DNA of 35,552 nt, taken from the NCBI GenBank assembly GCA_003990765.1, contig RBNJ01000247.1:1-35552 (forward strand), written 5' to 3'. The DNA is from Jimgerdemannia flammicorona. Taxonomy: Eukaryota. Position 1 is the stretch's first letter; each line of letters opens with the position of its first letter. A program made the translations under genes and the position numbers. Below are positions 3,486 to 34,526 of the stretch, one piece after another. The notes below the pieces were generated by a model. It was not told the origin of the DNA. It searched no databases and worked only from the letters and a program-made list of their open reading frames with translations.

Positions 3486-4163
3486 CTATGTATTCAATAT
3501 ATTTATAGTTAAGTTCTTATACTATATCAGCAATTTGGCCATAAGATAGAGTAGCAACTATTTTGGTAGTAATAACTTAAAGGTAGAGAATAAAGGTACT
3601 GTATTTATAGAAGAGTTCTTAGTATTTGTAGACAATGAGTTTCTAGTGTTGAGATGTCTGGGTAATATCTATGTCATAGTGATGTTCAACCATATCTTCT
3701 AGGAGGCAGCCAATCTGATAGTAGCTTGAGATTTGTTCAATTCAGTAGACTTTACTAAGCATATTTAGGACATTTTATTAGACTTCTACAAAATAGAGAG
3801 GTGCCAGGCTATGGATATTTATGAAGGACAGAGGGAGTGTGGCTTGGTTGACAATGGCATTCCAAATATCAGCATAGATATAGTTATAGATCTCAGTAGT
3901 CATGTTTGTATATATGTTTAAGAATTAAGATTGTTTGTTTGATTTATTGTGGTTCTCTGTTTCAATGCATCTGAGTACTCAATATATATATATTTGGTCC
4001 TGATTGGTAAGATTCTATTTGTGTAAATCTTATATTCTATGACTTTGAATTGACTTAGCTTTATACTCTATAACTTTGGTTTAACTCAGCTTCATGATCT
4101 TATATATAATTTTCAGATTTATTCAGAGGTAACATGTAATTTCAGTGGCTTGGAGGTTGTGTG
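3486..4163 (-). repeat. E0: 5' part of an old type-A LTR in inverted orientation
   Basis: Reverse complement aligns with the first ~680 bp of the type-A LTRs. Its terminal 6 nt are displaced to 34532-34537 by the E1 insertion. Confidence 0.9.
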
Positions 4164-4285
4164 TATAAGCACACAATCTCTAAGTCACTAAAATCACATG
4201 TCACTCTCTGAACAAGCTACTGGAATCATATGTGACCTTCAAACAAATCTGGAAATCACCTGCAAAATTACAAAGCTGAGTCAAT

Positions 4286-5517
4286 ATAAAGTCACAGAAC
4301 ATAAGATTTATATAAATGAGATCTTACCAATCAGAACTAAATATATATATACTAAGCACCAAGATATGTTAAAACAGAGAGCTAAAACAAACAACAATTA
4401 CAAACTTCTGAACATATATAAATATGACCACTGAGATCTACAACTGTATCCATACTAACATTTAGAATACTATTATCAATTGAGCCACACCCCCTCTGCC
4501 CCTTATGAATATCCATAGTCTAGCACCCCTCTACTTCATGAAAGCTCAATGGAATGCCCTGAACATACTTAGTGAGACCTACCAAATCAGATAAATCTCA
4601 AGCTACTATCAGATTGACTGCCTCCTGAAAGACATAATTGAACATCACTATGATATAGACATTACCCAGATGTCTCAACACCAGAAACTCATTGTCCACA
4701 ATCAAGAACTCTTTTACAAGTATAGCACTGTTATTTCCCACCTCTGAGTCATGACCACTAAAATGATTACTATTCTATCCTATAGCCAAATAAATGATAT
4801 AACATAAGAACTCAACCACAAGTATCTTGAATATGTTCAGACCATAGATAGAACCTTCCTGCATCTCAATGACCATATTCTGCAAATACCTCAAGTCAGA
4901 TATGCTATAAAGGACATCTATGATATAATCTGATTTAATGAAGACAAAGCAGAAGACAATAATCCCTCTGATACTGATATGACCTCAAGCCAAAGATTCC
5001 TGCCAACTCTGATCATACTGCCAACCTTACTAATGAACTTACAACAGTTCATAACCACCTATGAGACCTATTGGGATAATAACCACTGATATAAATATCA
5101 ACCTGCATTCACTTCCAATTACTTCAACTATAAGAAGAGACTGGAGAACACAATCTGTACCTACAGATAACTCTCAAGATTGAATCAACCACTCTACTAT
5201 CTGAGTATGAGTGATATGAACTATAGCTGCCAGCTTACTACAACCCTATGACTCATAGTGCTGTAACCTATAGAAGGTATGCAGACAGCAAATCTAATAG
5301 AAGTGAAGATAATACACTACTCCTTCACCCACCAACTCTATATCTAGTATATGAGATCAACAATGCTATCCTATAGGATGGTGATGAAGTCCCAATATAT
5401 TATTACCTCAGCAAACAAAGAGAGTTAATTCATAAACAACTCTTCCTAGATGAATACTTCATCAGAGATGAAATCATCAATAGTGATATCATCGAAGACT
5501 ACCCAGATAGTATCTAA
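4286..5517 (+). pseudogene. U3-encoded ORF-A, decayed copy
   Basis: Collinear with the better-preserved frame at 28702-29934. Confidence 0.7.
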
Positions 5518-5679
5518 ATCTATAGATTAGCCTTGTATGATATGACTGTGAACTGACTCAGCAGTCAGATGATCTCTTGACATATCAGATCACACTTATA
5601 CTATATAACTATATTCCAACTCAGTAAGACACTAAGTGTTATATCCATATCTAGTATAGCCCAGATAACTTCTTACTAG

Positions 5680-5687
5680 TATAAATA
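5680..5687 (+). promoter_or_regulatory. LTR TATA box (TATAAATA)
   Basis: Conserved in every complete LTR copy, about 130 bp upstream of a conserved AATAAA. Confidence 0.65.
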
Positions 5688-5811
5688 CCCCCTCCCCCAG
5701 ACCTCAGAATCTCAGATTTGAACACTTGAACAATCTGAATACAACCCCTGAACACTTCCCATAATATCTCTTTATACAACTACTTTTAGTATAGCAATAT
5801 TATAAATAGTA

Positions 5812-5817
5812 AATAAA
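5812..5817 (+). terminator. LTR polyadenylation signal AATAAA
   Basis: AATAAACCTATT is conserved in all complete LTR copies, downstream of the TATA box as expected for the R region. Confidence 0.55.
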
Positions 5818-6168
5818 CCTATTTAATAACTCATAAATCACTTTTAAGTAAATCTGCTCTCCATTAGATCCCACTCCTAACCCTATTACGAAATTTCCTA
5901 ATTAGGTATTGTCTACAGTGATACACCAATTCAACTAAGCTGGTCTTAGTCTCTTGAACTTTCTAAAATATGAAAAATTCTGAATATCCAGAACAGGATT
6001 TTGGTTGAGATGTCAACCTGAACTTGAAATCAATAAGCATAGAGGACATACTCCATATGAAATTGATCTTGACCTTAAGAAAACAGTCTCTCAGAATATT
6101 CAGAACTTCTAGAAAACCCTTCCAGAACTATGTAACAGTTACTCTAACAAGTAAACTCTCTTACAACT

Positions 6169-12262: not shown

Positions 12263-12695
12263 AACTGAATACTCTGCACCTATCAGTACATACTATATAT
12301 TACCCTCCTGAACATTATAACTATTATGAACAAAATCTAGAACTCAGCAAATTAAGACAAAAGAATACCAACTCTCTGAAAAAATACCAAAACTGAAAGC
12401 AAGTCTATTCTTCCCATATCACTGGTGGGAAATAAGGCATAGACATTTAAGAAGATTTCTTAAAGAAAATTCTCCAGCAGTGAATAACATCAGAATCACT
12501 TCCAGTGTATGGTATTAAATATATGACCCTTTAATGTATGAATCCAATGTATTAGACAACTATACTACAAGCATACCACTTTTTGAGAAAAATGGACTTC
12601 ATCAGACTTTTGACCTCCCAAATGATATAACAACACTAGAACAAATTAGAAGGCCCCAACAAGGATATCAAAAGCTAAGAAGGGGAGAGTTGTAA
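12243..12695 (+). pseudogene. E1 extra ORF3 (~150 codons) between pol and 3' LTR, unknown function
   Basis: ATG overlaps the end of pol, and the frame ends at the TAA inside the LTR's TGTAAG. Collinear with 31839-32292. Confidence 0.55.
12677..12689 (+). promoter_or_regulatory. Polypurine tract of E1
   Basis: AAGAAGGGGAGAG lies 1 nt before the 3' LTR. The same tract occurs in E2 (~32274-32286) and E3 (~24469-24481, minus). Confidence 0.9.
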
Positions 12696-14002
12696 GCACA
12701 CAACCTCTAAGCTACTAAAATTATATATCACCCCCTGAACAAGCCACTGGAATCACATGTGACCTCTGAACAAATCTGGAAATCACCTGCAAAATCACAA
12801 AGCTGAGTCAAATCGAAGTCACAAGCATACAAAGCTGAGTCAATATAAAGTCACAGAATACAAGATTTATACAAATGAGATCTTACTAATCAGGACCAAA
12901 TATATATATACCAAGTATCAAGACACATCAAAACAGAGAATCAAAACAAACAATAACTACAAACTTCTGAATATATACAAACATAACTACTGAGATCTAC
13001 AACTATATCTGTACTGACATTTAGAATGCCATTGTCAACTGAGCCACACCCTCTCTGCCTCTCATGAATATCCATAGTCTAGTACCCCTCTACTTCATGG
13101 AAGCTTAATGGAATGCTCTGAACATGCTTAGCGAGATCCACCAAATTGGACAAATCTCAAGCTACTACCAGATTGGCCACCTCCAGAAGACATGGTCAAA
13201 TACTACTATAATACAAATATTACTCAGATATCTCAATACCAGAAACTCATTGCTCACAAACATCAAGAACTCTTCTATGAGTATAGCACTATTATTCTCT
13301 GTCTCTGAGTCATGACTACTGAAATGATTACTATCCTGTCCTATGGCCAAATAGATGATATGATACAAAAACTCAACTACAAATATCTTGAATATGTTCA
13401 GACCCAGACAGAACCTTTCTACACCCCAATGACTATATTCTGCAAATGTCTCAAGTCAGATATGCTATAAAGGATATCTATAATATAATTCAATTTGATG
13501 AAGATAAAGTAGAAGACAATAATCTCTCTGATGCTGACATGATCTCAAGCCAAGGATCCCTGCCAACTCTGATCATACTGTCAACCTTACCAATGAACTT
13601 ACAACAGTTCATAACCACCTACAAGACCTATTGGGATAATGACCACTGGCATGAATACCAATCTATGTTCACTCCTGATTACTTCAACTATAATGAAGAG
13701 ACTGGAGAACACAATCTATACCTACAGACAACTCTCAAGATCGAACCAACCACTCCACTATCTGAGTATGAGTGATATAAACCATAGCCACTAGCTTACT
13801 ACAACCCTGTGACTCATAGTACTATAACCTATAAAAGGTATACAGATAGCAAATCTGATAGAAGTGAAGATAATGTACCACTCCTTTGCCCACCAACTCC
13901 ATACCCAGTATATGAGACCAATAATACTATTCTGTGAGATGGTGATGAAGTTTCAATATATTATTACCTTAGCAAATAAGAAGAGTTAATCTGCAAACAA
14001 CT
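12691..14002 (+). repeat. E1 3' LTR (type A), left part
   Basis: Begins TGTAAG after the PPT and is interrupted by E2 at CAACT. Confidence 0.95.
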
Positions 14003-14761
14003 TGTAAGCGCACAACCTCCAAGCCATCAAAATCGCATGGCATTCTCAGAACTAATTTGGAAACCACATGCGAGACTACAAAACAAGAGATCATCTGGTT
14101 ATATGAAATATGCCAGCAAGCACAAGAACCCACTACCAAGATATAAGAATACTAGAAGAAGTACTATAACCATAAGACTGACTCTGAACTACTATAACTA
14201 GTTTGGTATACTGTACTATTACAAAAGGAAACCGAAAGTACCAAACTCAAATTGAGATAAGAAGAACCCTATCTCATCTACCAAAAGGTTCACAAACTGC
14301 ACTTATCAACTCAAGACCAAGATACACTGTGACTATATAAGACCTCATTACTTAGCAGAAGCAAAATGCATTTAAATGACTCTATTTGCTCTATCTGTAT
14401 CACCTCTATTGGAGAGTGACAGATGCTTCATCTGAACTCAAGAAAGCTGACAACATCAAAACCAATCTCAAGCCATCCACATGACAGATATTACTACTAG
14501 AAATTGCCTTGGATTATAGATAATATCATTTCTGAGAGGTTTAAACCCCCAGCCATGACATTGAGAGCCCTTGCCCTAGATGAGAATGGCCAGTCCTCGC
14601 AAATATGCTAGCAGACAAAAAAAAAAAGAGAACCAAGACCTATTATTCTTATACAACTACCACCACCAAGGACAGCCTTAATCTTGCAAGAGATAGAAGT
14701 GACGACACCTTTGAAACTAATGACATCAGAAGTCAGAAAACTGCTCAGACTTTGCCAGTGA
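14003..14761 (+). pseudogene. Candidate U3-encoded ORF-B (~250 codons), decayed
   Basis: One frame is kept in both E2 LTRs. It has 8 stops here; 4 are sense codons (CAA/CGA/CAG) in another copy and 4 are shared by all B copies. No clear start ATG. Confidence 0.45.
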
Positions 14762-15497
14762 TGATGTCATCAATGGTAATGTCATCGAAGGCTACCCAGA
14801 TAGTATCTAAACCTATAAATAGCTTAGCAGTCATAGTATAGTTAAATTAGCCTTGTACGATATGACTGTGAACCGACTCAGCAGTCAGATGATCTCTTGA
14901 TATATCAGATCACTCTTGTACTACGTGACTACATTCCAACTCAGCAAGACACTTAGTGCTACATCCATATTCAGTATAGTCTAGATAGCCCCTCACTAGT
15001 ATAAATACCCTCTCCCCCAGACCTCAGAATCTCAGACTTGAAAGACCTGAACAATTTGAACACAACTCCTGAGCACTTCCCCACAATATCCCTTCACACA
15101 ACTACTCCTAGTATAGCAATATCATAAATAGTGAATAAACCTATTTAATAACTCACAAACCACTCTTAAGTAAATCCACTCCCTGTTAGATCCCACTCCT
15201 AACCCTATCATGAAATTTCCTAATTGGGTATTATCTGCAGTGATACACCAATTTAACTAAGCTGGTCTTAGTTTCTTGAACTTCCTGAAATACGGAAAAT
15301 TCTGAACATCCAGAACTAGTCTGAAAAAGGACTTTGGTTGAGACATCAATCTGATCTTGAAATCAATAAGCATAAAGGACATACTCCATATGAAATTGAT
15401 CTTGACCATAAGAAAACAGTCTTCCAGAACATCCAGAACTTCCAGAAAACCCTTTCAGAACTACATAACAGTTATCCTAAAAAGCAACCCTCTTACA
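14003..15497 (+). repeat. E2 5' LTR, type B (1495 bp)
   Basis: TGTAAG...CTTACA termini. Shares the first ~30 bp and last ~735 bp with type A, but has a different U3 core. Confidence 0.95.
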
Positions 15498-16459
15498 ACT
15501 TAGTAGTAGCAGTTTACAATCCAATTCCACTTCAAGATACTTCTTCACCCTGCTACAAATCCCTCTGCAAATTTCTATAAGTTGGTATCGAGCCCAACCT
15601 CTGAACTGGAATTTATCCTGAACTATCTGTCAATCTGGAGAGAATTGAACCTGATGTACAAGGACAATTTGACCTCCACACCTACAACAAGTGGGACAAA
15701 CTTTACTCAAAAAAAGAAGTACTCTGACTAAACTAGCAAATAGACAAAACCCTATTCACTGAACTCCTTGCACAACACCCAGCAAGTCAAGATGAAGAAG
15801 GTCTTATTGAAGCCTTCTTTACTCTTCTCAATAAGAGTTTTGTCAGCTCCACAAATCCGAGTGACCTAGGACAATCAGCAGTAGTCTTTCTAGCCTTAGT
15901 TCCTCACAAAGCCCAAGTCTCTGTAGCCAAGTGGCTCAACTCTATTAATTTTCACCATACCAGGACTAAGACTGCATTATACTACTGATTCCAGAATAGC
16001 AAGGCCCACCATATTCTTAAAGAAGAAGTAAGAGAAACCCTTCATCAACTACCTGACCCTAAACCTAAAGCAGACCCTGCTATAGCCCTACCTGAATCTA
16101 AAACTAATACCGAACCTGAACTTGACTTTGAATTAAGTCCATCTGAAATCAGATATACAACTGATTCTGTCTACTTTGATACTGAGCAAACCCAATTACA
16201 CAGGGACCAAACTGAAGAGGAGGAGGAGTATCTCAGTGAATTCGATCCCGAATATACCACTGAAGGAGAAGTACCTCCATCAGGACAGAATACATCTACA
16301 CAGCAACAAACAGTTATCTATCAAGCCCTCACTCCAGACCCACAACTACTACTCCAGCAACTTACACAGACCCAAAGAACCCCATCACACTCTGCACTAG
16401 TACCTCAAGTAGTACCAGTAACACCACTATCAGCAGTCCAACTGCCTCTAGTAAACAAC

Positions 16460-16782
16460 ATGGTGAACCAACAGATTCTAGACCTCACAGCCCAAGTAGC
16501 TATAATGGTAGCAACTATTACTGCATTAGCCAAACAGATCCAACCTACCAAAAATCTGAGCCTACCTACCTTCAATGGTACTGCACAAGAAGTCTAAAGC
16601 TTCATTAGTGTAGTTGACACCAACTTCAAAGCCAATCAATAGACCAATAAGTAAGTTTCTGACTGTGTCCTGACAAACAATCAAGACCATACTCTGGAAC
16701 AACTCTTTACTACTACTATAGCCTATGTCTGCCAAGTTGTTACATTCTTCTGAGGACCTGCTGAAGAATGGTGGCAAACCCT

Positions 16783-16813
<31 letters not shown>

Positions 16814-19800
16814 TAGTCCCTTGGACTCCATCTTTATTACCAGTCTATGAATAATTTACAATACCACCACCCACTATCCAATCCCCATCGGGTGGCTCCA
16901 CCCCACCTTGTTCTATATAAAGACCACCCTCTCACCAATAACTCCAACTCTCCCACCACTCTGACCACAGATTTTCACCACCAAGCAGCGCCTCCAACCC
17001 CCCTGCAGTCCCCAACCCAGCCACTAGCCTGTCAAGGTATCCTCCATAAGGAACTGCCATCTTGCTAACCAGCTCCCCAAGCTTGGTCACTTCTCCTTCT
17101 CAAATACAAATAGCCAGTGGCCGGCTAGCCCAACCCAAATAGCCAATGCCCATCCTAGGGTAATCCACTCTTCCCCAACCCCTCCAATCAATCGATCCCT
17201 CAAGTCCTCCCACCTCCCCTGGACATCATCACCCCTACGCCTTACCCCCAAGTAGTCCCCAACAGCCTGCCAAAAGTCTCCCAACATCTCACACTCCCCT
17301 AGCCAATGTTCCAGTGTCTGTACCAATCCCCCTTCCTGCCCGACATTATGGCACTCCTCACATTCAAAGCAGCCCCCTACAACAAGGTATCCTGAGCAGA
17401 AGTTAAGCATCACATTCCTCCTCAGTACATGCCACCAGACTACCCAGTACTTTGGTGGCATCCAGTTTTTCACTGCGGCACTCTAGGTCCAAACCCCATG
17501 CTAGTCCCACTCCTCACCAATTCTAACTCCTTGCCAACCACTAGGCCACAGATCCTGGCCTGGACCCCATTGACATTCGATACTATCACTAATGTTGAAC
17601 TCCAGTAAAGGCATACCTCCCAGAAGAATGCTATCCCATCTCCACATTGCCAGGTCCCAAGCCCTCTCCCCCACATTCCCTTACCAGCAAATACCAATGC
17701 AGTGTGCCCCCTTGGCTATCCCCCACCAGAATTCTTTGTATCTCAGTTGCGCATTGTTCTGAAGCCCAACCAACGAAAGAAGATTACCAGTCAAGCCTCT
17801 AGACAATGTCTGCCTCTCCCATATCTTCTGTAGCAGGGGGACTCAGCCCCCTCCATGCAACTCCACCACCCTCCTTAGCCACCAAGCCCTCAAACAGTGT
17901 AGGCATTTGGGGAAGTCCACCAGCCCAAGACAACCTCTCGCCACTGGTAGTGACAAAGTCTCCCAACCAATCTGACTCCATCTGCCAGCCCAAATCCAAC
18001 CCTTGGCCACCTTCACTAATCTCTTCACTACCCAGGCTGGGAAGTCCAGATGATAGACCAAATACCACAGCTTCGGCAGCCAGTATACATTCAAAATTGA
18101 GATCCTTCCTGCCAGAGAGAAGTGTCGACCCCCCCAACCCCGCAGGTCCTCCTCCCAAATTCCGATTCTCTGCTCCCACCACAGCCTGGGCAAAACAGAC
18201 CCATAGACCGACAAATAGATACCCAAGTACCGCACTGCCTCTCCGGTGGGGACAATTGTTCCAATGACTTCTCTGCCCACCAATCTATTGCCCAGCACCA
18301 TTTTTTCGCACTTGTGCCAATTCAGCTTCGCCCCAGAGTTCTCCTCATACCACTCCACTACCTTCCGGAGCTCCTCGACATCTGCAGTCACTCCCAAACC
18401 AACCACCATGTCATCTGCAAAGACTCCAACCTTCCAGCCAATGCCATAGATAGAGAGCCCCATGATCTTCCACCAAATCCTGTCCATCAGAGGTTCCAAG
18501 GAAAGAGCATACAAAATGGGGGACAGTGGGTCCCTCTGGGGCACTCCCCTACCCAGAGAGAAGGTGGCGAACCCTTCCTGAAAAACCTCTCACATGGGAT
18601 ACCCAACCTGCAGTAGTTGCTCAGAATGTAGCAAACAATGCCCCAGGATATAGAGCCCATCCTGCAGCCCCTGGACTCAAACAACTCATGATTGCCCAAT
18701 ACCACAGTGAAACCATGATTGCTGAATCCCGAGTAAAACTCCACAACCTCAAATTCAATGTATATGGTAAAGAAGAATTCGAAACCTTCTGTACAAAACT
18801 TGAGTCACTCCTGAACACTGTTGGCCTAAGATATATTGCCAACAATGAAGCATGAAATGGTATAAGAGCAGACCATTTATTTGATGCCCTACCTGAATAG
18901 CTTACTAGAAAAATCTGAGAACAAGGCCACCCAGTTGGTTGTGATCACCAACAATGGTACCTGGCAAGAATCAAGACTATGGTCAAGCAAATCCTAATAG
19001 CTAGACCAATTCTGCCCCGAAGGCATTTCAATAACAAGGAAAGGACTTAGACTAAAAAAGAAGAACCCAAGCATGAAGTATCCTGAGCTCCCTCCACATC
19101 TACCTCTTGAATACCCAGAAATCATGAACCCACCCAACTGAGTACCTTCAAAAAACTCACTGAAGGTGAAAGGAATGAACTTTGAAGAAGTGGAGCATGC
19201 TTCTATTGCCGAAAGACAGGATACATGGCCAGTGCCTGCCCTAACTAAAAACCCCAAACAGCAACATGAGCAACTGTTACCACTCTGCACCACCTCAACA
19301 ACATGACTACCAGAACACTAGACTTTGTCAAGTTAAGATAAACTGCTAAGGCCCCAACCAAAGGAAGTCAAAAAGCAGCTGGATATGACCTGTATGCAGC
19401 TGAAGAAGCTACAGTTTCCAACTGAGAAGTCAAATAAGTCTACACAGGAATCAGCATCCAAATCCCTGAAGGACATATTGGAAGAATATGCTGTCACAGC
19501 AGCCTAGCATTGAAAGAACTCTCAGTAGAAGGAGGAGTTATCGACAAAGATTACATAGGTGAAATCATTATCCTTATTCAAAACCACAGTTGGACACCCT
19601 TCAAGATCTCTATAGGTTTCTGCATTGCCCAGATTCTATTCGAAAAAATCAAGTCAACCCTGACAGTCAAGGAAGTCCCTGAACTACTGCCCACCATCTG
19701 AGGATCCAAAGGATTTGGCTCATTGAACAAGGCCCCAGCCCAACCTACCATGAGCAAAGAAGAACAGTTCTACAAGAAGATCAAAGATGGATATGTACCA

Positions 19801-22800
19801 AGTGGCTGATGCCCTCATGGCATTGGAATGTACTCTTCCCGAATGATTGATGATTGCTTCTCTTGTGTCAATGAACTGGCTCAAAGAAGAACCAATAGAA
19901 GGAAAGGTCCTACAACCAAAATCACCACCATTGGATCAGACAAACTACTCACACTTAAGGCTTTTGTCAACCAAGCACCTGTTAAGATTATAATAGACAG
20001 TGGTGCCTCAGGCAACTTCATCAATAAAGAGACAGCCAACAGACTCAAGATCTTCACCTCTCCAGTATAGCAAACTCAAGCAGTTGCTATAGCTGATGAC
20101 ACCTCACATATTATTAGCAAAGAAGTCCGCAATCTACCCTTCCGAATTGGTGACTACTGAGTACATGTTACCCTCCAAATTGTATCACTTCCTGATAATG
20201 AAATCATCCTTGAGACTCCATGATTAAAATAAGAGAACCCCATGATCGATTGGATAAACCATTCTCTGACCATTAAGAAAGGATGCCACAACTTCAAACT
20301 ACAAGGCAAAAAGGACCCACTTAATTCTAGTAACCCTAGACCAAAGATCACCTACATCAACAAGCTACAACTTAAGAAATTGGCCAAGAAATGCCCTCTC
20401 TTTGCCATCTCCATCTGTCCATCCAAAGGAGAACCCAAGAACTCCGAAGAAGATTTTTCCAAAGTTGACAGCCATATCAGACCACTATTCCAGAAATTTT
20501 GAGACATATTTCCAAAGAAGCTCCCAAAAGGCCTACCTCCTAAACAAGTGGTAGACTATACCATCAAGACTATCTCAGATGCCAAACCAGCCTTTAAGTC
20601 AATCTACCACATGTCTCCAAGAGAAATTGATGCACTCAAGAAAGAAATTGACAAACTTCTAGAATAAGGATTCATTAGATCCAGCATATCACCTTATAGT
20701 ACACTAGTCTTATTTGTTGTCAAGAAAGGAGGATATCTGCGAATGTGCATTGACTACTATGATTTCAATGAACAGACCATTAAGAACTGTTACCCACTAC
20801 TAAGGATCGATGAAATATTCGATAGACTTACCAACCCATAATTCATGAGCTCCTTTGACCTGCAAAATGATTACTGGCAAATCGCCATGAAAGAAGACAT
20901 CTACAAGACAGCCTTCTGAACTTGCTATGGACACTTCGAGTTCCTGGTTATGTATGCCCTTTGGCTTAACTAATGCTCCTGCAATCTTCCAGACTCTGAT
21001 GAATACTATTCTGCACCCATATCTGGACAAATTTGTTATTGTCTATATTGATGACATCCTAGTCTTCAGCAAAATGCTGGAGGAATATCTTGAACACCTT
21101 GAACTAGTCCTACTGAAACTTCAAGAAAACTGACTCTTTGCAAAACTCAGCAAGTGCGAATTTCTCCTGAAAGAAATTCAATTTCTTGGACACATTGTCA
21201 CTCCAAATGGAATTAAAGTGGACCCCAGCAAAATCTCTACAATCAAAAATTGGCCCAGACCCAAGAAGCTGAAAGACCTCCAGTCATTTCTGGGATTAAT
21301 AAACTATTACAGGTGATTTGTTGCCAACTTTGCTAAAATTGCCACTGCTCTCACCTAAATAACTAAGCATAGTAAGAAAGAAGAATAGCCCTGGACCACA
21401 AAACAAGAGAAAGACTTCAACAATCTTGTAAATTGGGGACCTGAGCAAGATACCACCTTTCAAGCACTGAAAGATGTCCTGATAACCACTCTAGTACTTT
21501 AAGTGGCAAATTCTGCCCTACTATATGAAGTTACTACTGATGCCTCTGACCTAGCTCTTGGAGCAGTGCTCATGCAAGAAGGACACTCTGTGGCCTATTA
21601 CTCCCACAAGTTCAATGATGCTGAAATTAACTATGCAACCCATGAGAAGAAAATGCTAGCCATCATAGACACTCTGATCAAATGGCGACCATACCTAGAA
21701 GGAGCACACTTCACCATATTGACTGACCACAAATCATTAGTCAACATTAAGACACAGACTACCCTTTCTCGAAAGCAAGCCAGATGGATGAAAGTCCTCA
21801 CCAACTTTGACTATGAAATCCAGTATCGCTCTAGTAAGGAAAATATTATTGTCAATACAATCTCCAGACTGCCTATTGAAGAAGTTATCCAAACTCTCAC
21901 CTTGGTTACCAATACTATCATGGAGAAAATTATTACAACATGTGCTGATGATAAGGAAGCTCAAGTACTGTGAGAAATCCTGAATAGTGATGATGCTGAC
22001 AAGTATACACAGTATCACTAATACCAATTGAAGGACAACGCTATCTACTATAAAGACAGACTATATGTCCCAAACAACCAAGACCTCTGAAGGATTATCC
22101 TATTCGAATGTCATGATGCACCCACAGCTGGATATTTAGGATTCGACAAATGCTATAAAGTTATCTCCCAAAACTTCTATTGGCCCCACATGGCAGATCA
22201 GCTCAAAACCTACATCACTTCCTGTGATACCTATCAACAAAACAAGTCCTCAACACTAGCAAAACCTGGCTTACTTCACTCTATCCCAGTACCATCTGTA
22301 AATTGGGAACAAATCTCTATAGACTTCATTATACAACTACCCTGAACTAAGAACAGACAAGATGCAATTGTTATCTTTGTAGACTATCTCAGCAAACAAG
22401 CTCACTTTGTGCCAACTACCACTACCACAACAGTACCAGATATAGCCACACTATTATTTGACAACATCTTCTGCTATCATGGTCTTTCTAAGATCATTGT
22501 TAGTGACCAAGACCCGAAATTTATCAGCCATTTTTGGAAAGCCCTTCATGCACACCTTGGAACAAAACTTACACTATCTACAGTCTTTCACTCTGAAACT
22601 GATGGCCAAACCGAAAGAATGAACTGAACTCTGGAACAAATGCTAAGAAATTATGTTTCCTATAGACAAGATGATTGATATGAATACCTTACTGCAGTCG
22701 AGTTTGTCTATAATAATAGCAAGCAAGCCTCTCTTGGAATAACTCCATTCTTTGCCAATACTGGACAAAATCCAAACACTCCTCTGACACTTATCTGAAC

Positions 22801-22985
22801 TACCGATGAACTCTCCACAGTTGAAGCTGTTGAAGAATTCCTACTCCGAATATGTAATCTAAGTCAGATTGCAATTGAGAATTTATCGCGAGCTCAAGAA
22901 CAACAGTCACAGTATGTTAACCAATACCACCAAGAAGAAACTTTCAATATTGGAGAAAAAGTTCTACTAGATATCCGAGGATACC
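16460..22985 (+). pseudogene. E2 gag-pol, main part (interrupted by the LINE at 16787-18562 and by E3)
   Basis: CFYCRKTG(Y)MASAC knuckle at 19198-19239; dUTPase ~19320-19725; [27 protein letters not shown] (~21044); TDASDLALGAVL; integrase core. Confidence 0.95.
16787..18562 (-). mobile_element. 5'-truncated L1/Tx1-like LINE inserted in E2 gag
   Basis: Poly(A) tail (T run 16786-16812). 17-bp TSD GGTGGCAAACCCTTTCT (16770-16786) / GGTGGCGAACCCTTCCT (18563-18579). RT motifs PQRDPLSPILY, FADD, YLGI, GRISILN. C-terminal CEEC..EHWLGEC zinc finger. Confidence 0.95.
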
Positions 22986-24467
22986 TATAAGAGGGTTACT
23001 TTTTTAGGATAACCATTATGTAGTTCTGGAAGAGTTTTCTGGAAGTTCTGGATATTCTGGAAGACCATTTTCTTATAGTCAAGATCAATTTCATATAGAG
23101 TATGTCCTCTACACTTATTGATTTCAAGATCGGGTTAACGTCTCAACCAAAGTCCTTTTTCAGACTAGTTCTGGATATTCAGGAGTTTCTGTATTTCAGA
23201 AAGTTTAAGAAACTAAAACCAGCTTAGTTGAATCAGTGTATCGCTGCAGACAATACCCAATTAGGAAATTTCATAATGGGGTTAGGAGTGGGACCTAATG
23301 GGGAGCAGATTTACTTAAGAGTGGTTTGTGGGTTATTAAATAGATTTATTCACTATTCATGCTATTGCTATACTAGGAGTAGTTGTGTAAAGGGATATTA
23401 TAGAGAAGTATTCAGGAGTATTCTTGTATATTCGAGTCTGAGATTCTGAGGTCTGGGGGAGGGGGTATTTATACTAGTGAGGGGCTATCTGGACTATACT
23501 AGATATGGATATAGCACTAAGTGCCTTACTGAGTTGGAATGCAGTCACATAGTATAAGTGTGATCTGATATATCAAGAGATTGTCTGACTGATGAGTCAG
23601 TTCACAGTCACATCATATAAGGCTAATCTAACTATACTATAACTGCTAGGCTATTTATAGGTTTAGATACTATCTGAGTAGTCTTTGATGACATCACTAT
23701 TGATGACATCATCACTAGCAAAGTCTGAGCAGTTTTCTGACTTCTGATATTATTAGTTTCAAGGTGTCATCACTTCTATCTCTTACAAGATTAAGGCTGT
23801 CCTTAGTGGCAGTGGTTGTATAAGGATAATAGGTCTTGGTTCTCTTTTTTTTTAGTCTGCTGGTGTATTTGTGAGAACTGGTCATTCTTGTCTAGGTGAG
23901 GGCTCCCAATGTCGCAGCTGGAAGTTCAAACCTCTCAGAAATGATATTTTCTGTAATCCGAGGCAATTTCTAGTAGTAATATCTGTCATGTGGATAGCTT
24001 GAGATTGGTTTTGACAATATCGGCTTTCTTGAGTTCAGATAAAGTGTCCATCACTCTCCAATGGAGGTGATACAGATAGAGTGAATAGAGTTATTCAAAT
24101 GTGTTTTGCTTCTGCTAAGTAATGAGGTCTTGTATAGTCGCAGTATATCTTAGTCTTGAGTTGATAAGTATAGTTCATAAACCTTTTGATAGATGAGATA
24201 GGGTTCTTCTTGTCTCAATTTGAGTTTGGTACTTTTGGTTTCCTTTTGTAATAGTACAGTATACTAAACTAGTTATAGCAATTCAGAGTCAGTCTTATAG
24301 TTGTAATACTTCTTCTAGTATTCTTGTATCTTAGTGGTAGGTTCTCATGCTTGCTGGCATATTTCATGTAACCAGATGATCTCTTGTTTTGTAGTCTCAC
24401 ATGTGGTTTCCAAATTAGTTCTGAGGATGCTATGTGATTTTGGTGGCTTAGAGGTTGTGTGCTTACA
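22986..24467 (-). repeat. E3 3' LTR (type B)
   Basis: Reverse complement of the type-B LTR, with the PPT adjacent at 24468 onward. Confidence 0.95.
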
Positions 24468-27860: not shown

Positions 27861-28547
27861 TGTAAGAGGGTTACTTTTTTAGGGTAACCATTACATAGTT
27901 CTGGAAGGGTTTTCTGAAAGTTCTGGATGTTCTAGAAGACTGTTTTCTTATAGTTAAGATCAATTTCATATGGAGTATGTCCTCTATGCTTATTGATTTC
28001 AAGATCAGGTTGATGTCTCAACCAAAGTCCTTTTTCGGACTAGTTCTAAATATTCAGGAGTTTCCATATTTCAGGAAGTTCAAAAAACTAAGACCAGCTT
28101 AGTTGAATCAGTGTATCACTACAGACAATACCCAATTAGGAAATTTTGTGATAGGTTTAGGAGTGGGATCTAATGGAGAGCAGATTTACTTAAGAGTAGT
28201 TTGTAGGTTATTAAATAGGTTTATTCGCTATTTATGCTATTACTATACTAGGAGTAGTTGTGTGAAGGGATATTGTGGAGAAGTTTTCAGAAGTATTCTT
28301 GTGTGTTTGAGTCTGAGATTCTGAGGTCTGGGGGAGGGGGTATTTATACTAGTGAGGGGCTATCTGGACTATGCTAGATATGGATGTAGTACTAAGTACC
28401 TTGCTGAGTTGGAATGCAGTCACATAGTACAAGTGTGATCTGATATATCAAGAGATCATCTGACTGATGAGTCAGTTCATAGTCATGTCATATAAGGCTA
28501 ATCTAACTATACTATAACTGCTAGGCTATTTATAGGTTTAGGCACTA
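27861..28547 (-). repeat. E3 5' LTR, 3' portion
   Basis: Adjacent to the PBS and interrupted by E4. With 30657-31452 it sums to 1483 bp, versus 1482 bp for the 3' LTR. Confidence 0.95.
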
Positions 28548-28701
28548 TATAAGCGCACAACCTCCAAGCCACCGAAATTACACGTCACCCTCTGAACAAA
28601 GCCACTGAAATCACACGCGACCTCTGAACAAATCTGGAAATCACCTGCTTGATCATGAAGCTAAGTCAAACTGAAGTTACAGCACACAAAGCTGAGTCAA
28701 T

Positions 28702-29934
28702 ATGAAGTCACGGAACACAAGATCTACACAAACGGAATCTTACCAATCAGGACCAAATGTATATATACCAAGCACCGAGATACGTCGAATCAGAGAACCA
28801 AAACAAACAACAACCACAACTTCCAAACACACAAACATGACTACTGAAATCTACAACCATATCCGCGCTGACATTTAGAATGTCATTGTCAACCGAGCCA
28901 CACCTCCTCTGCCCCTCATGAATATCCATAGCCTGGCACCTCTCTACTTCGTGGAAGCCCGATGGAATGCCCTGAACATGCTTAATGAGGCCCACCAGAT
29001 CGGACAAATATCAAGCTACTACCAGATCGGCCGCCTCTTGGAAGACATGGTCGAACACCACCATGATACAGATATTACCCAGATGTCTCAACACCAGAAG
29101 CTCATTGCCCACAAACATCAAGAACTCTTCTATGAGTACAACACCTTTATTCCCCGCCTCTGAGTTACTACCAGCGAAATGGTTGCTACTCTGTCCTATG
29201 GCCAAATCAATGACATGATATAAGAAATCAACCACAAGTACCTCGAGTATATCGAAACCACAGACAGAACCTTCCCGCACCCCGATGACTATATCCTACA
29301 AATGCCTCAAGTTGGATATGCCATGAAGGATGTCTATGATATAATCCACTTTGATGAAGATGAAGCAGAAGACAATGATCCCTCTGACACTGATATGACC
29401 TCTAGCCAAGAATCTCTGCCAACCCTGATCACTCCGCCAACCTTGCCGATGAACTTACAACAGTTCATAACCACATATGAAACTTATTAGGACAATGACC
29501 ACTGGCATGAATACTAACCCGCGTTCACCCCTGATTACTTCAATTACAATGAAGAGACCGGAGAACACAACCTGTATCTTCAGACAACCCTCGAGATCGA
29601 ACCAACCACTCCACCACCCGAGTACGAGCGACATGAACTACAGCCGCCAGCATACTATAACCCCACAACTCATAGTGCTGTAACCTATAGAAGGTATGCA
29701 GACAGCGAATTCGATGAAAGCGAAGACAATACACCCATCCTTTGCCCACCAACACCTTATCCAGCATATGAAACAGATGATGCTATCCTGTGGGATGGAG
29801 ATGAAGTTCCAATGTATTATTATCTCAGCGAACAAGGAGAAGTAATCCGTGAACCATTATTCCTAGACGACTACTTCATCAGAGATGATGCAATTAATGG
29901 TAATGTCATCGAAGACTACCCAGATAGTGCCTAA
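28702..29934 (+). pseudogene. U3-encoded ORF-A (~410 codons), best-preserved copy; unknown protein with an acidic Tyr/Pro-rich C-terminal half
   Basis: Single frame from ATG 28702 to TAA 29932-29934 with no frameshift. It has 5 internal stops, 4 of which are TGG or CAA in other copies in this window. Confidence 0.8.
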
Positions 29935-30138
29935 ACCTATAAATAGCCTAGCAGTCATAGTATAGATAGATTAGCCTTATACGACATGACTGTGAACTGA
30001 CTCAGCAGTCAGACGATCTCTTGATATATCAGATCACACTTATACTATGTGACTGCATTCTGACTCAGCAAAGCACTTAGTGCTACATCTATATCTAGCC
30101 TAGTCCAGATAGCCCCTCACTAGTATAAATACCCCCTC

Positions 30139-30162
30139 TTTTTTTTTTTTTTATAGTCTATA
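30139..30162 (-). mobile_element. 24-nt abortive LINE insertion
   Basis: T14-ATAGTC matches the LINE 3' end at 16799-16818. Perfect 15-bp TSD TATAAATACCCCCTC (30124-30138 / 30163-30177). Confidence 0.85.
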
Positions 30163-30656
30163 TATAAATACCCCCTCCCCCAGACCTCAGAATCGGAGAC
30201 TTGAACAATCTGAACACAACTCCTGAGCACTTCCCCACAATACCCCTTCACATAAATACTCCTAGTATAGCAATATCATAAATAGCAAATAAACCTATTC
30301 CATAATCCACAAACCACTCTTAAGTAAATCCGCTCTCTGTTAGGTCCTACTCCTAACCCCATCACGAAATTTCCTAATTGGGTATTGTCTGCAGCGATAC
30401 GCCAATTCAACTAAGCTGGTCTTAGTTTCTTGAACTTCCTGAAATACAGAAAATCCTGAACATCCAGAACTAGTCTGAAAAAGGACTTTGGTTGAGACAT
30501 CAACCCGATCTTGAAATCAATAAGCATAGAGGACATACTCCATATGAAATTGATCTTGACCATAAGAAAACGGTCTTCTAGAACATCCAGAATATTCAGA
30601 AACCCTTTCCAGAACTACATAATGGTTACCCTAAAAAGTAACCCTCTTACACACTA

Positions 30657-31452
30657 TCTGGGTAGTCTTTGATGACATCACTATTGATGACATCATCGCT
30701 AGTAAAGTCTGAGCAGTTTTCTAACTTCTGACATTATTAGTTTCATGGTGTCATTACTTCTATCTCTTGCAAGATTAAGGCTGTCCTTAGTGGTGGTGGT
30801 TGTACAAGAATAACAGGTCTTGGTTCTCTTTTTTTTTGATCTGCTGGTGCATTTGCAAAAACTGGCCATTCTTGTCTAGGGCAAGAGCTTCCAATGTTAT
30901 AGCTGGGGGTTCAAACCTCTCAGAAATGATATTTTCTATAATCCGAGGCAATTTCTAGTAGTAATATCTGTCACATAGATGGCTTGAGATTGGTTTCGAT
31001 GATGTCGGCTTTCTTGAGTTCAGATGAAGCATCTGTCACTCTCTAATGGAGATGATACAGATAGAGCAAACAGAGTTGTTTAAATGTGTTTTGCTTCTAC
31101 TAAGTAATGAGGTCTTGTATAGTCACAGTATATTTTGGTCTTGAGTTGATAAGTACAGTTCATGAACCTTTTGATAGATGAGATAGGGTTCTTCTTATCT
31201 CAATTTGAGTTTGGTACTTTTGGTTTCTTTTTGTAATAGTACAGTATACTAAACTAGTTATAGTGGTTCAGAGTCAGTCTTATGGTTGTAGTACTTCTTC
31301 TAGTATTCTTATATCTTGGCGGTGGGTTCTCATACTTGCTAGCATATTTCATGTAACCAGATGATCTCTTATTTTGTAGTCTTGCATGTGGTTTCCAAAT
31401 TAGTTCTGAGGATAACATGTGATTTTGATGGCTTGGAGGTTGTGTGCTTACA
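30657..31452 (-). repeat. E3 5' LTR, 5' portion (type-B U3)
   Basis: Resumes after the E4 TSD and ends GCTTACA at 31452. Confidence 0.95.
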
Positions 31453-31457
31453 ATACC

Positions 31458-31858
31458 GAGTTGACAACCTCAAGCACAGACCATTTACAAAGCTGAACAG
31501 TAAGTTCATTAGACCATTTGAAGTTATCACACAAGTCTCTCCTACTTCCTACAAATTGGTGCTACTGGACACCATTAAGATTCACCTAGTCTTTAATGTC
31601 TAACGTCTCAAGCGATACAATGAGAATGATGACAAGCTATTTCCAAACCAGACCACCAAACCACCTGCACCTATCATTATTAATGACCAAGAAGAATACG
31701 AAGTTGAACAAATCCTCAACAAACATGGCCACAAAAACCACCCAGAGTACCTTGTCAAATGGAAAGGTTACCTAATCCATAATGCAACCTGGGAACCCAA
31801 GACCAATCTCCAGAATACTACCGACTTAGTTCAGGAATATGATCCCTTGAACAACTAA
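31458..31858 (+). pseudogene. E2 integrase C-terminus (GPY/F region) and chromodomain
   Basis: KLNSKFIRPFEV...IHLVFNV and EEYEVEQILNKHGHKNHPEYLVKWKGYLIHNATWEP. Confidence 0.95.
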
Positions 31859-32292
31859 AACTGAATACTCTGACACCTATCAGTACATACTATATACTAT
31901 ATCTTCTGAACATTATAATTATCACAAACCAAACCAAGAACTTAGCAAAACAAGACAAGAATACTGACTCTCTGGAAAAATAGCAAAACTGAAAGCAAGC
32001 CTATTCTCCCTGTACCACTGGTGGGAAACAAGGCATAGATATTTAAGAAGATTCCTTAGAGGAAATTCTCTAGCAGTGAATGATGTCAGAATCACTTCTG
32101 GTACACAGCATTGAATATATGACCCTTTAATGTGTGAATCCAATGCGTTAGGTAACTATACTATGAGCATGCCACTTTCTGAGAAAAATGGACTTCACCA
32201 GACTTTTGATCTCCCAAATGGGGTAACAACACTAGAATAAAATTAGAAGGCCCCAATGAGGACATCGAAAGCTAAGAAGGGGAGAGTTGTAA
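31839..32292 (+). pseudogene. E2 extra ORF3
   Basis: Reads MIP*TTKTEYSDTYQYILY...LYHWWETRHRYLRRFLRG...NGLHQTFDLPNGVTTLE. Stops are TGA/TAA of transition type, with one late 1-nt insertion. Confidence 0.55.
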
Positions 32293-33782
32293 GTGCACAA
32301 CCTCTAAGCCACCAAAATCGTATAGTATCTTCAGAACTAATTTGGAAACCACATGCGAGACTACAAAACAAGAGATCATATGGTTACACGAAATATGCCA
32401 GCAAGCACGAGAACCCACCACCAAGATACAAGAATACTAGAAGAAGTACTATAACCATAAAACTGACTCTGAACTGCTATAACTAGTTTGGTATACTATA
32501 CTATTACAAAAGAAACCTAAAAGTACCAAACTCAAATTGAGACAAGAAGAACCCTATCTCATCTACCAAAAGGTTCATGAACTGCACTTATCAACTCAAG
32601 ACCAAGATATACTGTGACTATATAAGACCTCATTACTTAGTGGAAGCAAAATACATTTGAATAACTCTGTTCACTCTATCTGTGTCACCTCCATTAGAGA
32701 GTGACGGACACTTCATCTGAACTCAAGAAAGCCGACAATATCAAAACCAATCTCAAGCCATCCACATGACAGATATTACTACTAGAAATTGCCTCGGATT
32801 ACAGATAATATCATTTCCAAGAGGTTCAAACCCCCAGCCATAATATTGGGAGCTCTTGCCCTAGACAAAAATGGCCAGTCCTTGCAAATGCACCAGCAAA
32901 CAAAAAAAAAAAGAGAACCAAGACCTGTTATTCTTATACAACCACCACCACTAAGGATAGTCTTAATCTTGCAAGCGATAGAAGTAATGATACCTTTGAA
33001 ACTGATGACATTAGAAGTCAAAAAACTGCTCAGACTTTGCCAGCGATGATATCATCAATGGTGATGTCATCGAAAGCTACCCAGATAGTGTCTAAACCTA
33101 TAAATAGCTTAGCAGTCATAGTATAGTTAGATTAGCCTTATATGATGTGACTGTGAACTGACTCAGCAGTCAGACGATCTCTTGACATGTCAGATCACTC
33201 TTATACTATGTGACTGCATTCTGACTCAGCAAAATACTTAGTGCTACATCCATATTCAGTATAGTCCAGATAGCCCCTCACTAGTATAAATACTCCCTCC
33301 CCCAGATCTTAGAATCTCAGACTTGAAAGATCTGAACAATCTGAAAACAACTCCTGAGCACTTCTCTATAATATCTCTTTATACAACTACTTCTAGTATA
33401 GCAATATCATGAATAGCAAATAAACCTATTTAATAACCCACAAACCACTCTTAAGTAAATCTGCTCCCTATTAGGTCTCACTCCTAACCCCATCATGAAA
33501 TTTCCTAATTGGGTATTGTCTGCAGCGATATGCCAATTTAACTAAGCTGGTCTTAGTTTCTTGAACTTCCTGAAATACAGAAAATCCTGAACATCAAGAA
33601 CTAGTCTAAAAAAGGACTTTGGTTGAGACATCAACCTGATCTTAAAATCAATAAGCATAGAGGATGTACTCTATACGAAATTGATCTTGATCATAAGAAA
33701 ACAGTCTTCCAGAACATCCAGAACTTCCAGAAAACCCTTCCAGAACTACATAATGGTTACCTTAAAAAGCAACCCTCTTACA
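32288..33782 (+). repeat. E2 3' LTR (type B, 1495 bp)
   Basis: Preceded by the PPT; direct repeat of 14003-15497. Confidence 0.95.
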
Positions 33783-33787
33783 CAACT

Positions 33788-34526
33788 CTTCCTAGATAAA
33801 TACTTCATCAGAGATGATGTCATTAATGGTGATATCATTGAAGACTACCCAGATAGTATCTAAATCTATAGATTAGCTTTATATGACATGACTGTGAACT
33901 GACTCAGCAGTTAGATAATCTCTTGATATATGTATCAGATCACACTTATACTATATAACTGTATTCTAACTCAGCAAGGCACTAAGTGCTACATCCATAT
34001 CTAGTATAGCCTAGATAGCCCCTCACTAGTATAAATACCCCCTCCCTCAGACCTCAGAATCTCAGACTTGAATACTTGAATAATCCAAACACAACCCCTG
34101 AACACTTCCCATAATATCTCTTTACACAACTACTCCTAGTATAGTAATATTATAAATAGTGAATAAACCTATTTAATAACCCACAAATTACTCTTAAGTA
34201 AATCTGCTTTCCATTAGATCCCACTTCTAACCCTATTATAAAATTTCCTAATTGGGTATTATCAGCAGTAATACACCAATTCAACTAAGCTGGTCTTAGT
34301 CTCTTGAACTTCCTGAAATATGGAAAATTCTGAATATCCAGAACTAGTCCAAAAAGAGACTTTGGTTGAGACATCAACCCAAACTTGAAATCAATAAGTA
34401 TAGAGGACATACTCTATATGAAATTGATCTTGACCTTAAGAAAACAGTCTTCCAAAATATCCAAAACTTCTAGAAAACCCTTTCAGAACTATGTAATGGT
34501 TACCCTAACAAGTAAACCCTCTTACA
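33788..34526 (+). repeat. E1 3' LTR, right part
   Basis: Continues the type-A sequence (CTTCCTAGAT...). Shares the E1-specific end CTAACAAGTAAA with the E1 5' LTR. Confidence 0.95.

Follow-up and report, generated by a model that had tools for sequence, protein, structure and literature searches.

Contig RBNJ01000247.1 of Jimgerdemannia flammicorona, whose 35,552 nt we analyzed in full and refer to as the window, holds five long terminal repeat (LTR) retrotransposons nested one within another (E0>E1>E2>E3>E4). Self-BLAST and reading of the junctions gave this order, in which E2 lies inside the 3′ LTR of E1, E3 lies inside E2, and E3 and E0 are on the minus strand; the result reproduces the map of a first-pass annotation of the window, including its division of the LTRs into two types. 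Type A LTRs are ∼2.0−2.1 kb long (E0, which is partial, E1, and E4), and type B LTRs are ∼1.5 kb long (E2 and E3). The two types share both ends and sit on one retrotransposon backbone, and the sequences between the shared ends are unrelated. In type A this middle is a decayed protein gene, of which the type B LTR retains the last codons in frame. We consider it reasonably probable that type B arose from a gene-bearing, A-like LTR by a single replacement and then transposed at least twice.

Two LTR types on a common backbone

The LTR termini read TGTAAG...TTACA, with a TATAAG start in some copies that reflects a G-to-A change, and the junctions show 5-bp target duplications for E1 (GTGTG/GTGTA), E2 (CAACT), E3 (ATACC), and E4 (CACTA). 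The two LTRs of an element are of one type wherever both are present, A/A in E1 and B/B in E2 and E3; E0 and E4 are represented by single LTRs. The earlier claim that each element carries matched types at its two ends could therefore be checked in three elements only, and in those it holds: mixed LTR types were found in 0 of the three, too small a sample to exclude swapping. Matching types are accounted for because the unique 3′ (U3) regions of both LTRs are copied from the single 3′ U3 of the genomic RNA, so that a change there appears in both LTRs of all daughter elements. We agree with the first-pass annotation that both versions have transposed, as indicated by the matching LTRs within elements together with the target duplications.

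The blocks that the two types have in common were defined from a MAFFT alignment of seven LTR copies (Table 1). The 5′ shared block, which presumably holds the end recognized by integrase (IN), extends over ∼50 nt, not the ∼30 nt given previously; the 3′ shared block, put at ∼735 nt before, is 738 nt long. In the E2 copy the 3′ block contains TATAAATA at 14814 and 15000 and AATAAA at 15134. Going by such motifs, to which we assign only putative roles, the 3′ shared block is probably composed of the promoter, the repeat (R) region, and the unique 5′ (U5) region. The internal region and R/U5 are common to the two subfamilies, and it is a block of U3 that differs. Clear microhomology was not found at the A/B junctions, and on the 3′ side similarity fades over ∼12 nt. 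Only type A has a 32-nt tandem duplication here, beyond which the two types are again partly similar over ∼20 nt. We note that positions 12797−12863, and the equivalent stretch in the other type A LTRs, carry 32-nt tandem repeats along with the repeated short motifs GAAATCAC, AAGCTGAGTCAA, and GAAGTCAC upstream of the gene; they may be regulatory repeats.

All LTR copies carry the mark of one kind of mutation, with changes that are almost purely C-to-T and G-to-A. Within an LTR pair, the 3′ blocks are separated by 61−67 transitions versus 2 transversions. When scored against the restored type A consensus, CpG is retained at 2−3 of 81 sites in E1 and at 52 of 81 in E4, and the type B copies retain 7−13 of 58; E4 is the youngest and least decayed copy. 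The mutated fraction is highest at CpG (0.44−0.58 in the older copies), followed by CpA and CpC, and is lowest at CpT (CpG > CpA > CpC >> CpT). This pattern points to mutation of repeats in the host that is either of the cytosine-methylation type or similar to repeat-induced point mutation.

The middles of the two types were compared as consensus sequences in which C and G had been restored at transition-variable sites (1233 nt for A and 685 nt for B). On the same strand the best local score is 23, compared to 24.2 ± 2.5 for 100 dinucleotide shuffles (z = −0.5), and on the opposite strand it is 18, compared to 19.5 ± 1.6 for the shuffles (z = −0.9). As a positive control, 300 nt of the shared block scores 384. 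The earlier statement that the middles do not align is borne out on both strands. Since the middles are without similarity on either strand, type B is not a deletion of type A, an objection that the first-pass annotation had raised against its own proposal. A simple deletion derivative would agree with the fact that B is ∼0.5 kb shorter and has both ends in common with A, but nothing in A, on either strand or at the protein level, corresponds to the 685-nt B middle. The shuffle-tested comparison refutes this origin, and we give it practically no credence.

Table 1. Positions of the LTRs, their shared blocks and middles, the type-A gene and its remnant, and the internal region of E2
Feature	Position	Strand	Description	Basis
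Type-A U3 gene in E4	28837..29934	+	366 codons including stop; frame intact, 5 in-frame stops	
Remnant of type-A gene in type B LTR	14751..14810	+	last 19 codons and stop; reads FASDDVINGNVIEGYPDSI, then stop	
B-specific middle	14075..14750	+	676 nt in E2 copy (685 nt in B consensus); 11-nt A run at 14617	
5′ block common to A and B	14003..14052	+	∼50 nt, then ∼20 partly similar nt	MAFFT alignment
3′ block common to A and B	14760..15497	+	738 nt to LTR end; starts GATGATGTCATCAATGG (14760 in E2)	
E2 5′ LTR, type B	14003..15497	+	ends TGTAAG...TTACA; CAACT target duplication 13998−14002	self-BLAST, junctions, alignment
E2 3′ LTR, type B	32288..33782	+	CAACT duplication at 33783−33787	self-BLAST, junctions, alignment
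E1 5′ LTR, type A	4164..6165	+	gene remnant with frameshifts and stops	
E1 3′ LTR, type A, 5′ part	12691..14002	+	interrupted by E2 within the gene, at about codon 340	
E1 3′ LTR, type A, 3′ part	33788..34526	+	separated from 5′ part by E2	
E3 3′ LTR, type B	22986..24467	−		self-BLAST, junctions, alignment
E3 5′ LTR, type B, 3′ part	27861..28547	−	LTR interrupted by E4	
E3 5′ LTR, type B, 5′ part	30657..31452	−	ATACC duplication at 31453−31457 and 22981−22985	
E4 solo LTR, type A	28548..30651	+	CACTA on both flanks; inside E3 5′ LTR	
E0 partial type-A LTR (about first 680 nt)	3491..4163 plus 34532−34537 (remaining 6 nt)	−	split by E1 11 nt from end	
E2 internal region, first part	15498..22985	+	broken dUTPase, protease, reverse transcriptase, RNase H, integrase; LINE insertion 16786−18562	
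E2 internal region, last part	31458..32287	+	integrase C-terminus with SH3_Tf2-1 and chromodomain, ∼440 nt spacer, purine-rich tract before LTR	

The type-A U3 gene and its remnant in type B

The type-A gene is best preserved in E4, where it lies wholly inside the solo LTR; a complete open reading frame (ORF) is thus found within U3 in type A, and none is found there in type B. In E4, TATATATA occurs at 28760, 77 nt 5′ of the start codon, the stop is followed at once by a TATAAATA box at 29938 and then by another at 30124, and AATAAA occurs at 30288. We take these motifs as candidate promoter and poly(A) signals. The same LTR has a private 31-nt insertion at 30124−30170, made up of a T run and a duplicated TATAAATA box, right after its main TATA box.

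Two open relatives of the predicted A protein (P0001) are found in public contigs. P0003, encoded on an 1180-bp contig, is 128 aa long and 91% identical to residues 1−128, and P0002, encoded on a 998-bp contig, is 247 aa long and 66% identical to residues 115−364. The five in-frame stops of the E4 gene correspond to W, R, Q, W, and Q in the relatives. A HMMER search of 1.84 billion representative proteins returned only P0002 and P0003, together with one weak match to a repeat protein (39 residues, E = 7.9e-6), and a search of Pfam with the A protein gave no family up to E = 1. When the gene is compared between elements, the two E1 LTRs share one base and E4 has another at 126 sites, which are distributed 35/20/71 over codon positions 1/2/3; 23 of these are transversions, distributed 4/2/17. 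These differences arose mostly while the lineages were still active. The bias over codon positions is the mark of selection on a protein; together with the preserved frame and the open relatives at 91% and 66% identity, it identifies the A middle as a decayed protein gene. The same signature indicates that the A gene is conserved, and so the likening of this slot to a hypervariable accessory-gene locus in the first-pass annotation does not fit.

Structural models add little to this picture. With a three-row alignment as input, AlphaFold2 returned a model of the A protein that has a mean predicted local distance difference test (pLDDT) score of 32.1 and a predicted template modeling score of 0.21, too poor for a fold search. 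Helices are indicated over residues 1−170 and little structure in the acidic remainder; we regard the model as of no use. The ESM Atlas model of P0002 has a pLDDT of 0.39, and a query of the ESM Atlas with P0002 gave no usable match. Separately, two matches of the A middle in tblastx at 3048−3228 (E = 0.002) were dismissed as low-complexity, C-rich sequence of a long interspersed nuclear element (LINE).

In type B, tblastn with P0001 finds residues 347−365 in all four copies and nothing else above noise. This remnant abuts the B-specific middle (Table 1), in which we found no convincing ORF; the longest in the restored consensus is 105 aa. The middle therefore has to be weighed as a possible second cargo, which would be either a dead accessory gene or a noncoding RNA or regulatory module under selection of its own. 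Such a reading draws on the lower stop count of the best sense frame in the restored consensus (7 in 270 codons, compared to 8−17 in the other five frames) and on the retention of the 685-nt middle by E2 as well as E3, which have 15 fixed differences there, no more than in the shared block (24 over 738 nt). It is opposed by the persistence of the stops, which survive restoration, with four of them present in all four copies, and by the even spread of the 15 fixed E2−E3 differences over the codon positions of this frame (5/4/6), although 15 sites have little power. In addition, a word-index search of ∼5.8 billion proteins with this one frame gave no relative, no Pfam-bearing match was obtained, and three Rfam matches scored 19.5−22.4 bits, below the gathering scores of 40−48. 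Against the remainder of the window, the B middle had no blastn or tblastx match above chance level. A second cargo is thus quite improbable in our estimation, and the B middle is apparently noncoding and shows no sign of a cargo of its own. The variable cargo slot proposed earlier survives as a bounded slot in U3 that holds a protein gene in type A, and not as one that is also loaded in type B.

Lineage and direction of the change

In the internal regions, 18 transversions separate E2 from E3 over the 3392 columns common to them, 52 separate E1 from E3 in the same region, and 94 separate E1 from E2 over 6516 columns; the two B elements are sisters in this part of their sequence. Because E2 and E3 are the closest relatives internally, cassette type agrees with lineage. 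The first-pass annotation had set congruence of cassette type with two deeply separated lineages of the reverse transcriptase (RT) against its own proposal of swapping, and congruence is what we find, though the lineages are only shallowly separated. The internal sequence of E3 (24468−27860, minus strand) is just 3.4 kb long and is without ∼2.7 kb and ∼0.47 kb that E2 has, a gap that takes in most of RT to IN; either E3 was a deletion derivative already at its insertion or this sequence was lost later.

The direction of the change can be approached through the tail of the gene. P0002, which is 34% diverged, ends with the same C-terminal tail and at the same stop position, and only 6−10 fixed transversions in ∼580 sites separate the A and B versions of the 3′ shared block. 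Because this distant relative has the same tail and the A and B blocks are little diverged, the tail would have been part of the gene long before the A/B split, which argues that B descends from a gene-bearing LTR. The reverse order, in which B is older and A arose by insertion of a gene into a B-like LTR, is in our view very unlikely. Capture of genes by LTR retrotransposons is known (PMC7264820), and the star-like shape of the shared block makes the direction unreadable from a tree. Against this order, B has the end of the A gene (19 codons and the stop) in frame, and conservation of this tail in a relative that is only 66% identical shows it to be an ancient component of the gene. Nor would an insertion by itself take away the 685 nt that are special to B.

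In the single replacement that we favor, the older state would be type A, with the gene for an acidic-tailed protein wholly in the U3 of a 2-kb LTR. Approximately 1.2 kb, comprising the upstream region and the first 347 codons, would have been exchanged for ∼0.68 kb of unrelated, apparently noncoding sequence, and two parts would have been left untouched: the first 50−70 nt of the LTR, and the sequence that begins with the last 19 codons and leads directly into the TATA boxes, R, and U5. Either a DNA-level rearrangement in a master copy or a switch of template to a second RNA while the minus strand was being made could have brought this about. The B subfamily would then have diversified and inserted at least twice, as E2 and E3. 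Between these two, 41 LTR sites show fixed differences, with 15 in the B middle and 24 in the shared block, which suggests that diversification followed loss of the gene. Given that the gene-less type B transposed, the U3 gene would not be needed in cis for transposition; it may be dispensable, or its product may be supplied in trans by A elements.

The first-pass annotation had proposed more than this, namely, cassettes that are interchangeable and swapped by template switching. In its general form, U3 would be a modular slot in which unrelated cassettes are repeatedly exchanged between co-packaged RNAs, with A and B as two of several. There is a fungal precedent in crapaud (PMC10787394), and the U3 of Tnt1 has diversified in a modular way (PMC1838419). 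Several features of the window also fit this proposal and weigh against a single replacement. In the 3′ block, which spans ∼770 columns of which ∼620 are comparable, one transition (position 322) separates A from B, and so little differentiation is what ongoing exchange or homogenization would give. The four LTR lineages are star-like, with 4 private transversions in E1, 1 in E2, 5 in E3, and 10 in E4. Distances between E2 and E3, when set beside those between E1 and E2, are uneven between LTR and internal region: E2 and E3 have 6 fixed transversions in ∼617 LTR sites versus 18 in 3392 internal columns, decay included. This unevenness could point to different histories of LTR and internal region and so favor recombination; the counts are too small to decide. 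There are further points that tell against the account that we prefer. One event is proposed from very little sampling, as three elements have internal regions and four lineages have LTRs. A donor of the B middle was not found in the window, in metagenome or viral contigs, or among proteins, so that these data do not demonstrate a template switch. The best B frame, having the fewest stops, may be an older, long-dead ORF. Finally, all copies are heavily decayed, so that no statement is possible on the autonomy of B elements.

Set against repeated exchange are the two cassette types, the only ones among eight LTR copies of five elements, the sister relationship of the B elements internally, the lack of any mixed-LTR element in the window, the missing junction microhomology, and the failure of searches beyond the window to return further copies with readable sequence. 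Swapping is not demonstrated by these data, since there are two states and one replacement suffices to explain them, and we judge repeated modular exchange to be unlikely. A bolder variant takes the LTR as a self-contained, exchangeable gene unit, in which a slot with its own TATA-like box (28760), gene, and LTR poly(A) signal (30288) is traded, along with B and further slots, by template switching at the conserved blocks, and in which B depends on protein made by A. We hold this to be distinctly unlikely; if it were true, even a solo LTR would be a small gene.

The searches beyond the window drew on sequencing runs and on contig collections. Contigs of runs X1 and X2, which are labeled soil metagenome, and of X3, from three studies in all, cover both the A and the B middles, which places both of them outside the window as well. 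Of 7135 X1 contigs, 634 are at least 99% alike to the window; at sites of disagreement, C or G in the contigs mostly stands against T or A in the window (in X1, T>C 610, A>G 414, C>T 289, and G>A 175). The sequencing runs listed have small shares (at most 0.16), and none of them is recorded as RNA. The contig joints and loose ends, among those listed, are explained by A-type contigs placed on the shared ends of a B copy. The depth of the shared block in X1−X3 exceeds that of the A and B middles together, from which we draw no conclusion because parts cannot be ranked by the depth of contigs and a conserved block makes it easier for more distant relatives to clear the 80% limit. Run X8 was likewise set aside as evidence of expression, as its RNA status is only a guess and it covers mainly R/U5. 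Metagenome contigs had 0 matches to a 24-nt pattern taken from the beginning of the 3′ shared block; with the integrase C-terminus (P0005) they yielded 19 loci at 32−56% identity, and the A gene, the B middle, and the shared blocks are missing from every one of these. Viral contigs returned nothing for a 27-mer of the B middle, the shared-block pattern, or the A-gene alignment, and prokaryote genome contigs returned nothing for the A-gene alignment.

Family assignment, neighboring sequences, and known systems

Pfam was run on the open fragments of E1 and E2. In E2 the matches are ordered dUTPase (19438), protease (19810), RVT_1 (20891), RT_RNaseH (21503), Integrase_H2C2 (22091), and rve (22346). 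The dUTPase match (PF00692) lies upstream of the protease match and is found at 8144−8680 in E1 and at 19438−19698 in E2, and the integrase C-terminus (P0005, 31460−31846) matches PF00385 Chromo at 6.4e-15 and PF24626 SH3_Tf2-1 at 3.5e-12. The elements have TG...CA LTR ends with a short target duplication, the order protease (PR)-RT-RNase H-IN, and an integrase chromodomain, all of which are features of Ty3/gypsy chromoviruses (Metaviridae). They form a dUTPase-bearing Ty3/gypsy chromovirus family of the order dUTPase-PR-RT-RNase H-IN-chromodomain, present here as two subfamilies. Chromoviruses that bear a dUTPase have been described from fungi, among them PosPlaTy3-3, in which the dUTPase is at the N-terminus of Pol (PMC2864245). 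In the elements described here the dUTPase domain is within pol as well, a likeness by domain placement.

Other sequences in the window surround or interrupt these elements. The gag region of E2 contains a 5′-truncated LINE (16786−18562, minus strand), whose minus-strand poly(A) tail appears as a T run at the left end. It has a 16-nt target duplication (16770−16785 and 18563−18578, with 2 mismatches) and is not present in E1 or E3, and its minus-strand ORF at 17846−18589 matches RVT_1 at 1.7e-9. A second stretch, at 1−3490 on the minus strand, has a G+C content of ∼0.5 and a strong excess of C on the plus strand; its minus-strand ORFs resemble, by eye, LINE ORF1 and the start of an endonuclease, and Pfam gave no match for two of them. 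It meets the truncated LTR of E0 at ∼3490, and this LTR is probably interrupted by it. In E2, the ∼440 nt that separate the chromodomain from the 3′ LTR (31847−32287) show no obvious ORF. A scan of the window with ARAGORN detected no tRNA gene.

LTR families that combine a single backbone with unrelated versions of U3 have been published before. In the Tnt1 superfamily (Tnt1A/B/C, Retrolyc1A/B, and Retrosol), unrelated U3 regulatory regions are combined with a conserved coding backbone, which was described as modular evolution (PMC1838419). The subfamilies in the window resemble those of Tnt1 in having unrelated U3 regions on one backbone; Tnt1, in contrast, is a plant Ty1/copia element with short regulatory boxes in U3, and here a gene occupies U3. 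Westerberg et al. (2024, PMC10787394) report 14 LTR subfamilies of crapaud, distinguished by U3, in the Podospora anserina complex. Some crapaud elements have mixed LTRs, and internal regions do not follow LTR type; these authors also consider recombination between co-packaged RNAs. Like the family described here, crapaud is a fungal LTR family with a variable 5′ half (U3), a constant R/U5 and internal region, and C-to-T decay. The two LTRs of crapaud together measure ∼800 bp, whereas here a single LTR measures 1.5−2.1 kb, there are two types in place of 14 subfamilies, and these are congruent with lineage, with E2 and E3 as sisters, so that the decoupling of LTR type from the internal tree seen in crapaud is not found in the window. 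Unlike crapaud, moreover, one U3 version is here a 366-codon protein gene.

Additional ORFs (aORFs), which are conserved, of unknown function, and found beside gag-pol in many copies of a family, have been reviewed by Vicient and Casacuberta (2020, PMC7264820). They are mostly placed between pol and the 3′ LTR, whereas the ORF of the A gene sits inside the LTR, and the text of that review does not contain the phrases "in", "within", or "inside the LTR". Likewise, a full-text literature search for an ORF within the LTR of a fungal retrotransposon gave no description of such a gene among the papers listed, as far as titles and the opening lines of abstracts indicate. All elements in the window are dead and the sample is five elements, which should be borne in mind in these comparisons. 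Exchange of LTRs as such is also a familiar idea: in soybean, whole LTRs are reportedly exchanged between autonomous and nonautonomous partners, through recombination during reverse transcription (Du et al., Plant Cell, 2010). The elements described here differ in that a block inside U3 is what varies and no exchange is demonstrated.

The nearest layout known to us is that of mouse mammary tumor virus, in which the sag gene, or "LTR ORF", is a protein gene in U3 located upstream of the LTR promoter, and every LTR holds a copy. The A gene shares this layout. It differs in having no sequence relation to sag, or to any other known accessory protein, by Pfam or HMMER, in its fungal host, and in belonging to a retrotransposon without env. 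While the pattern of unrelated U3 versions on one backbone is ordinary in light of Tnt1 and crapaud, what is unusual here is that one version is a selected protein gene inside an LTR and the other a natural replacement that still spread. The A/B pair offers a ready comparison for asking whether an LTR gene is needed in cis, in trans, or not at all, and whether the B middle alters the activity of the promoter.

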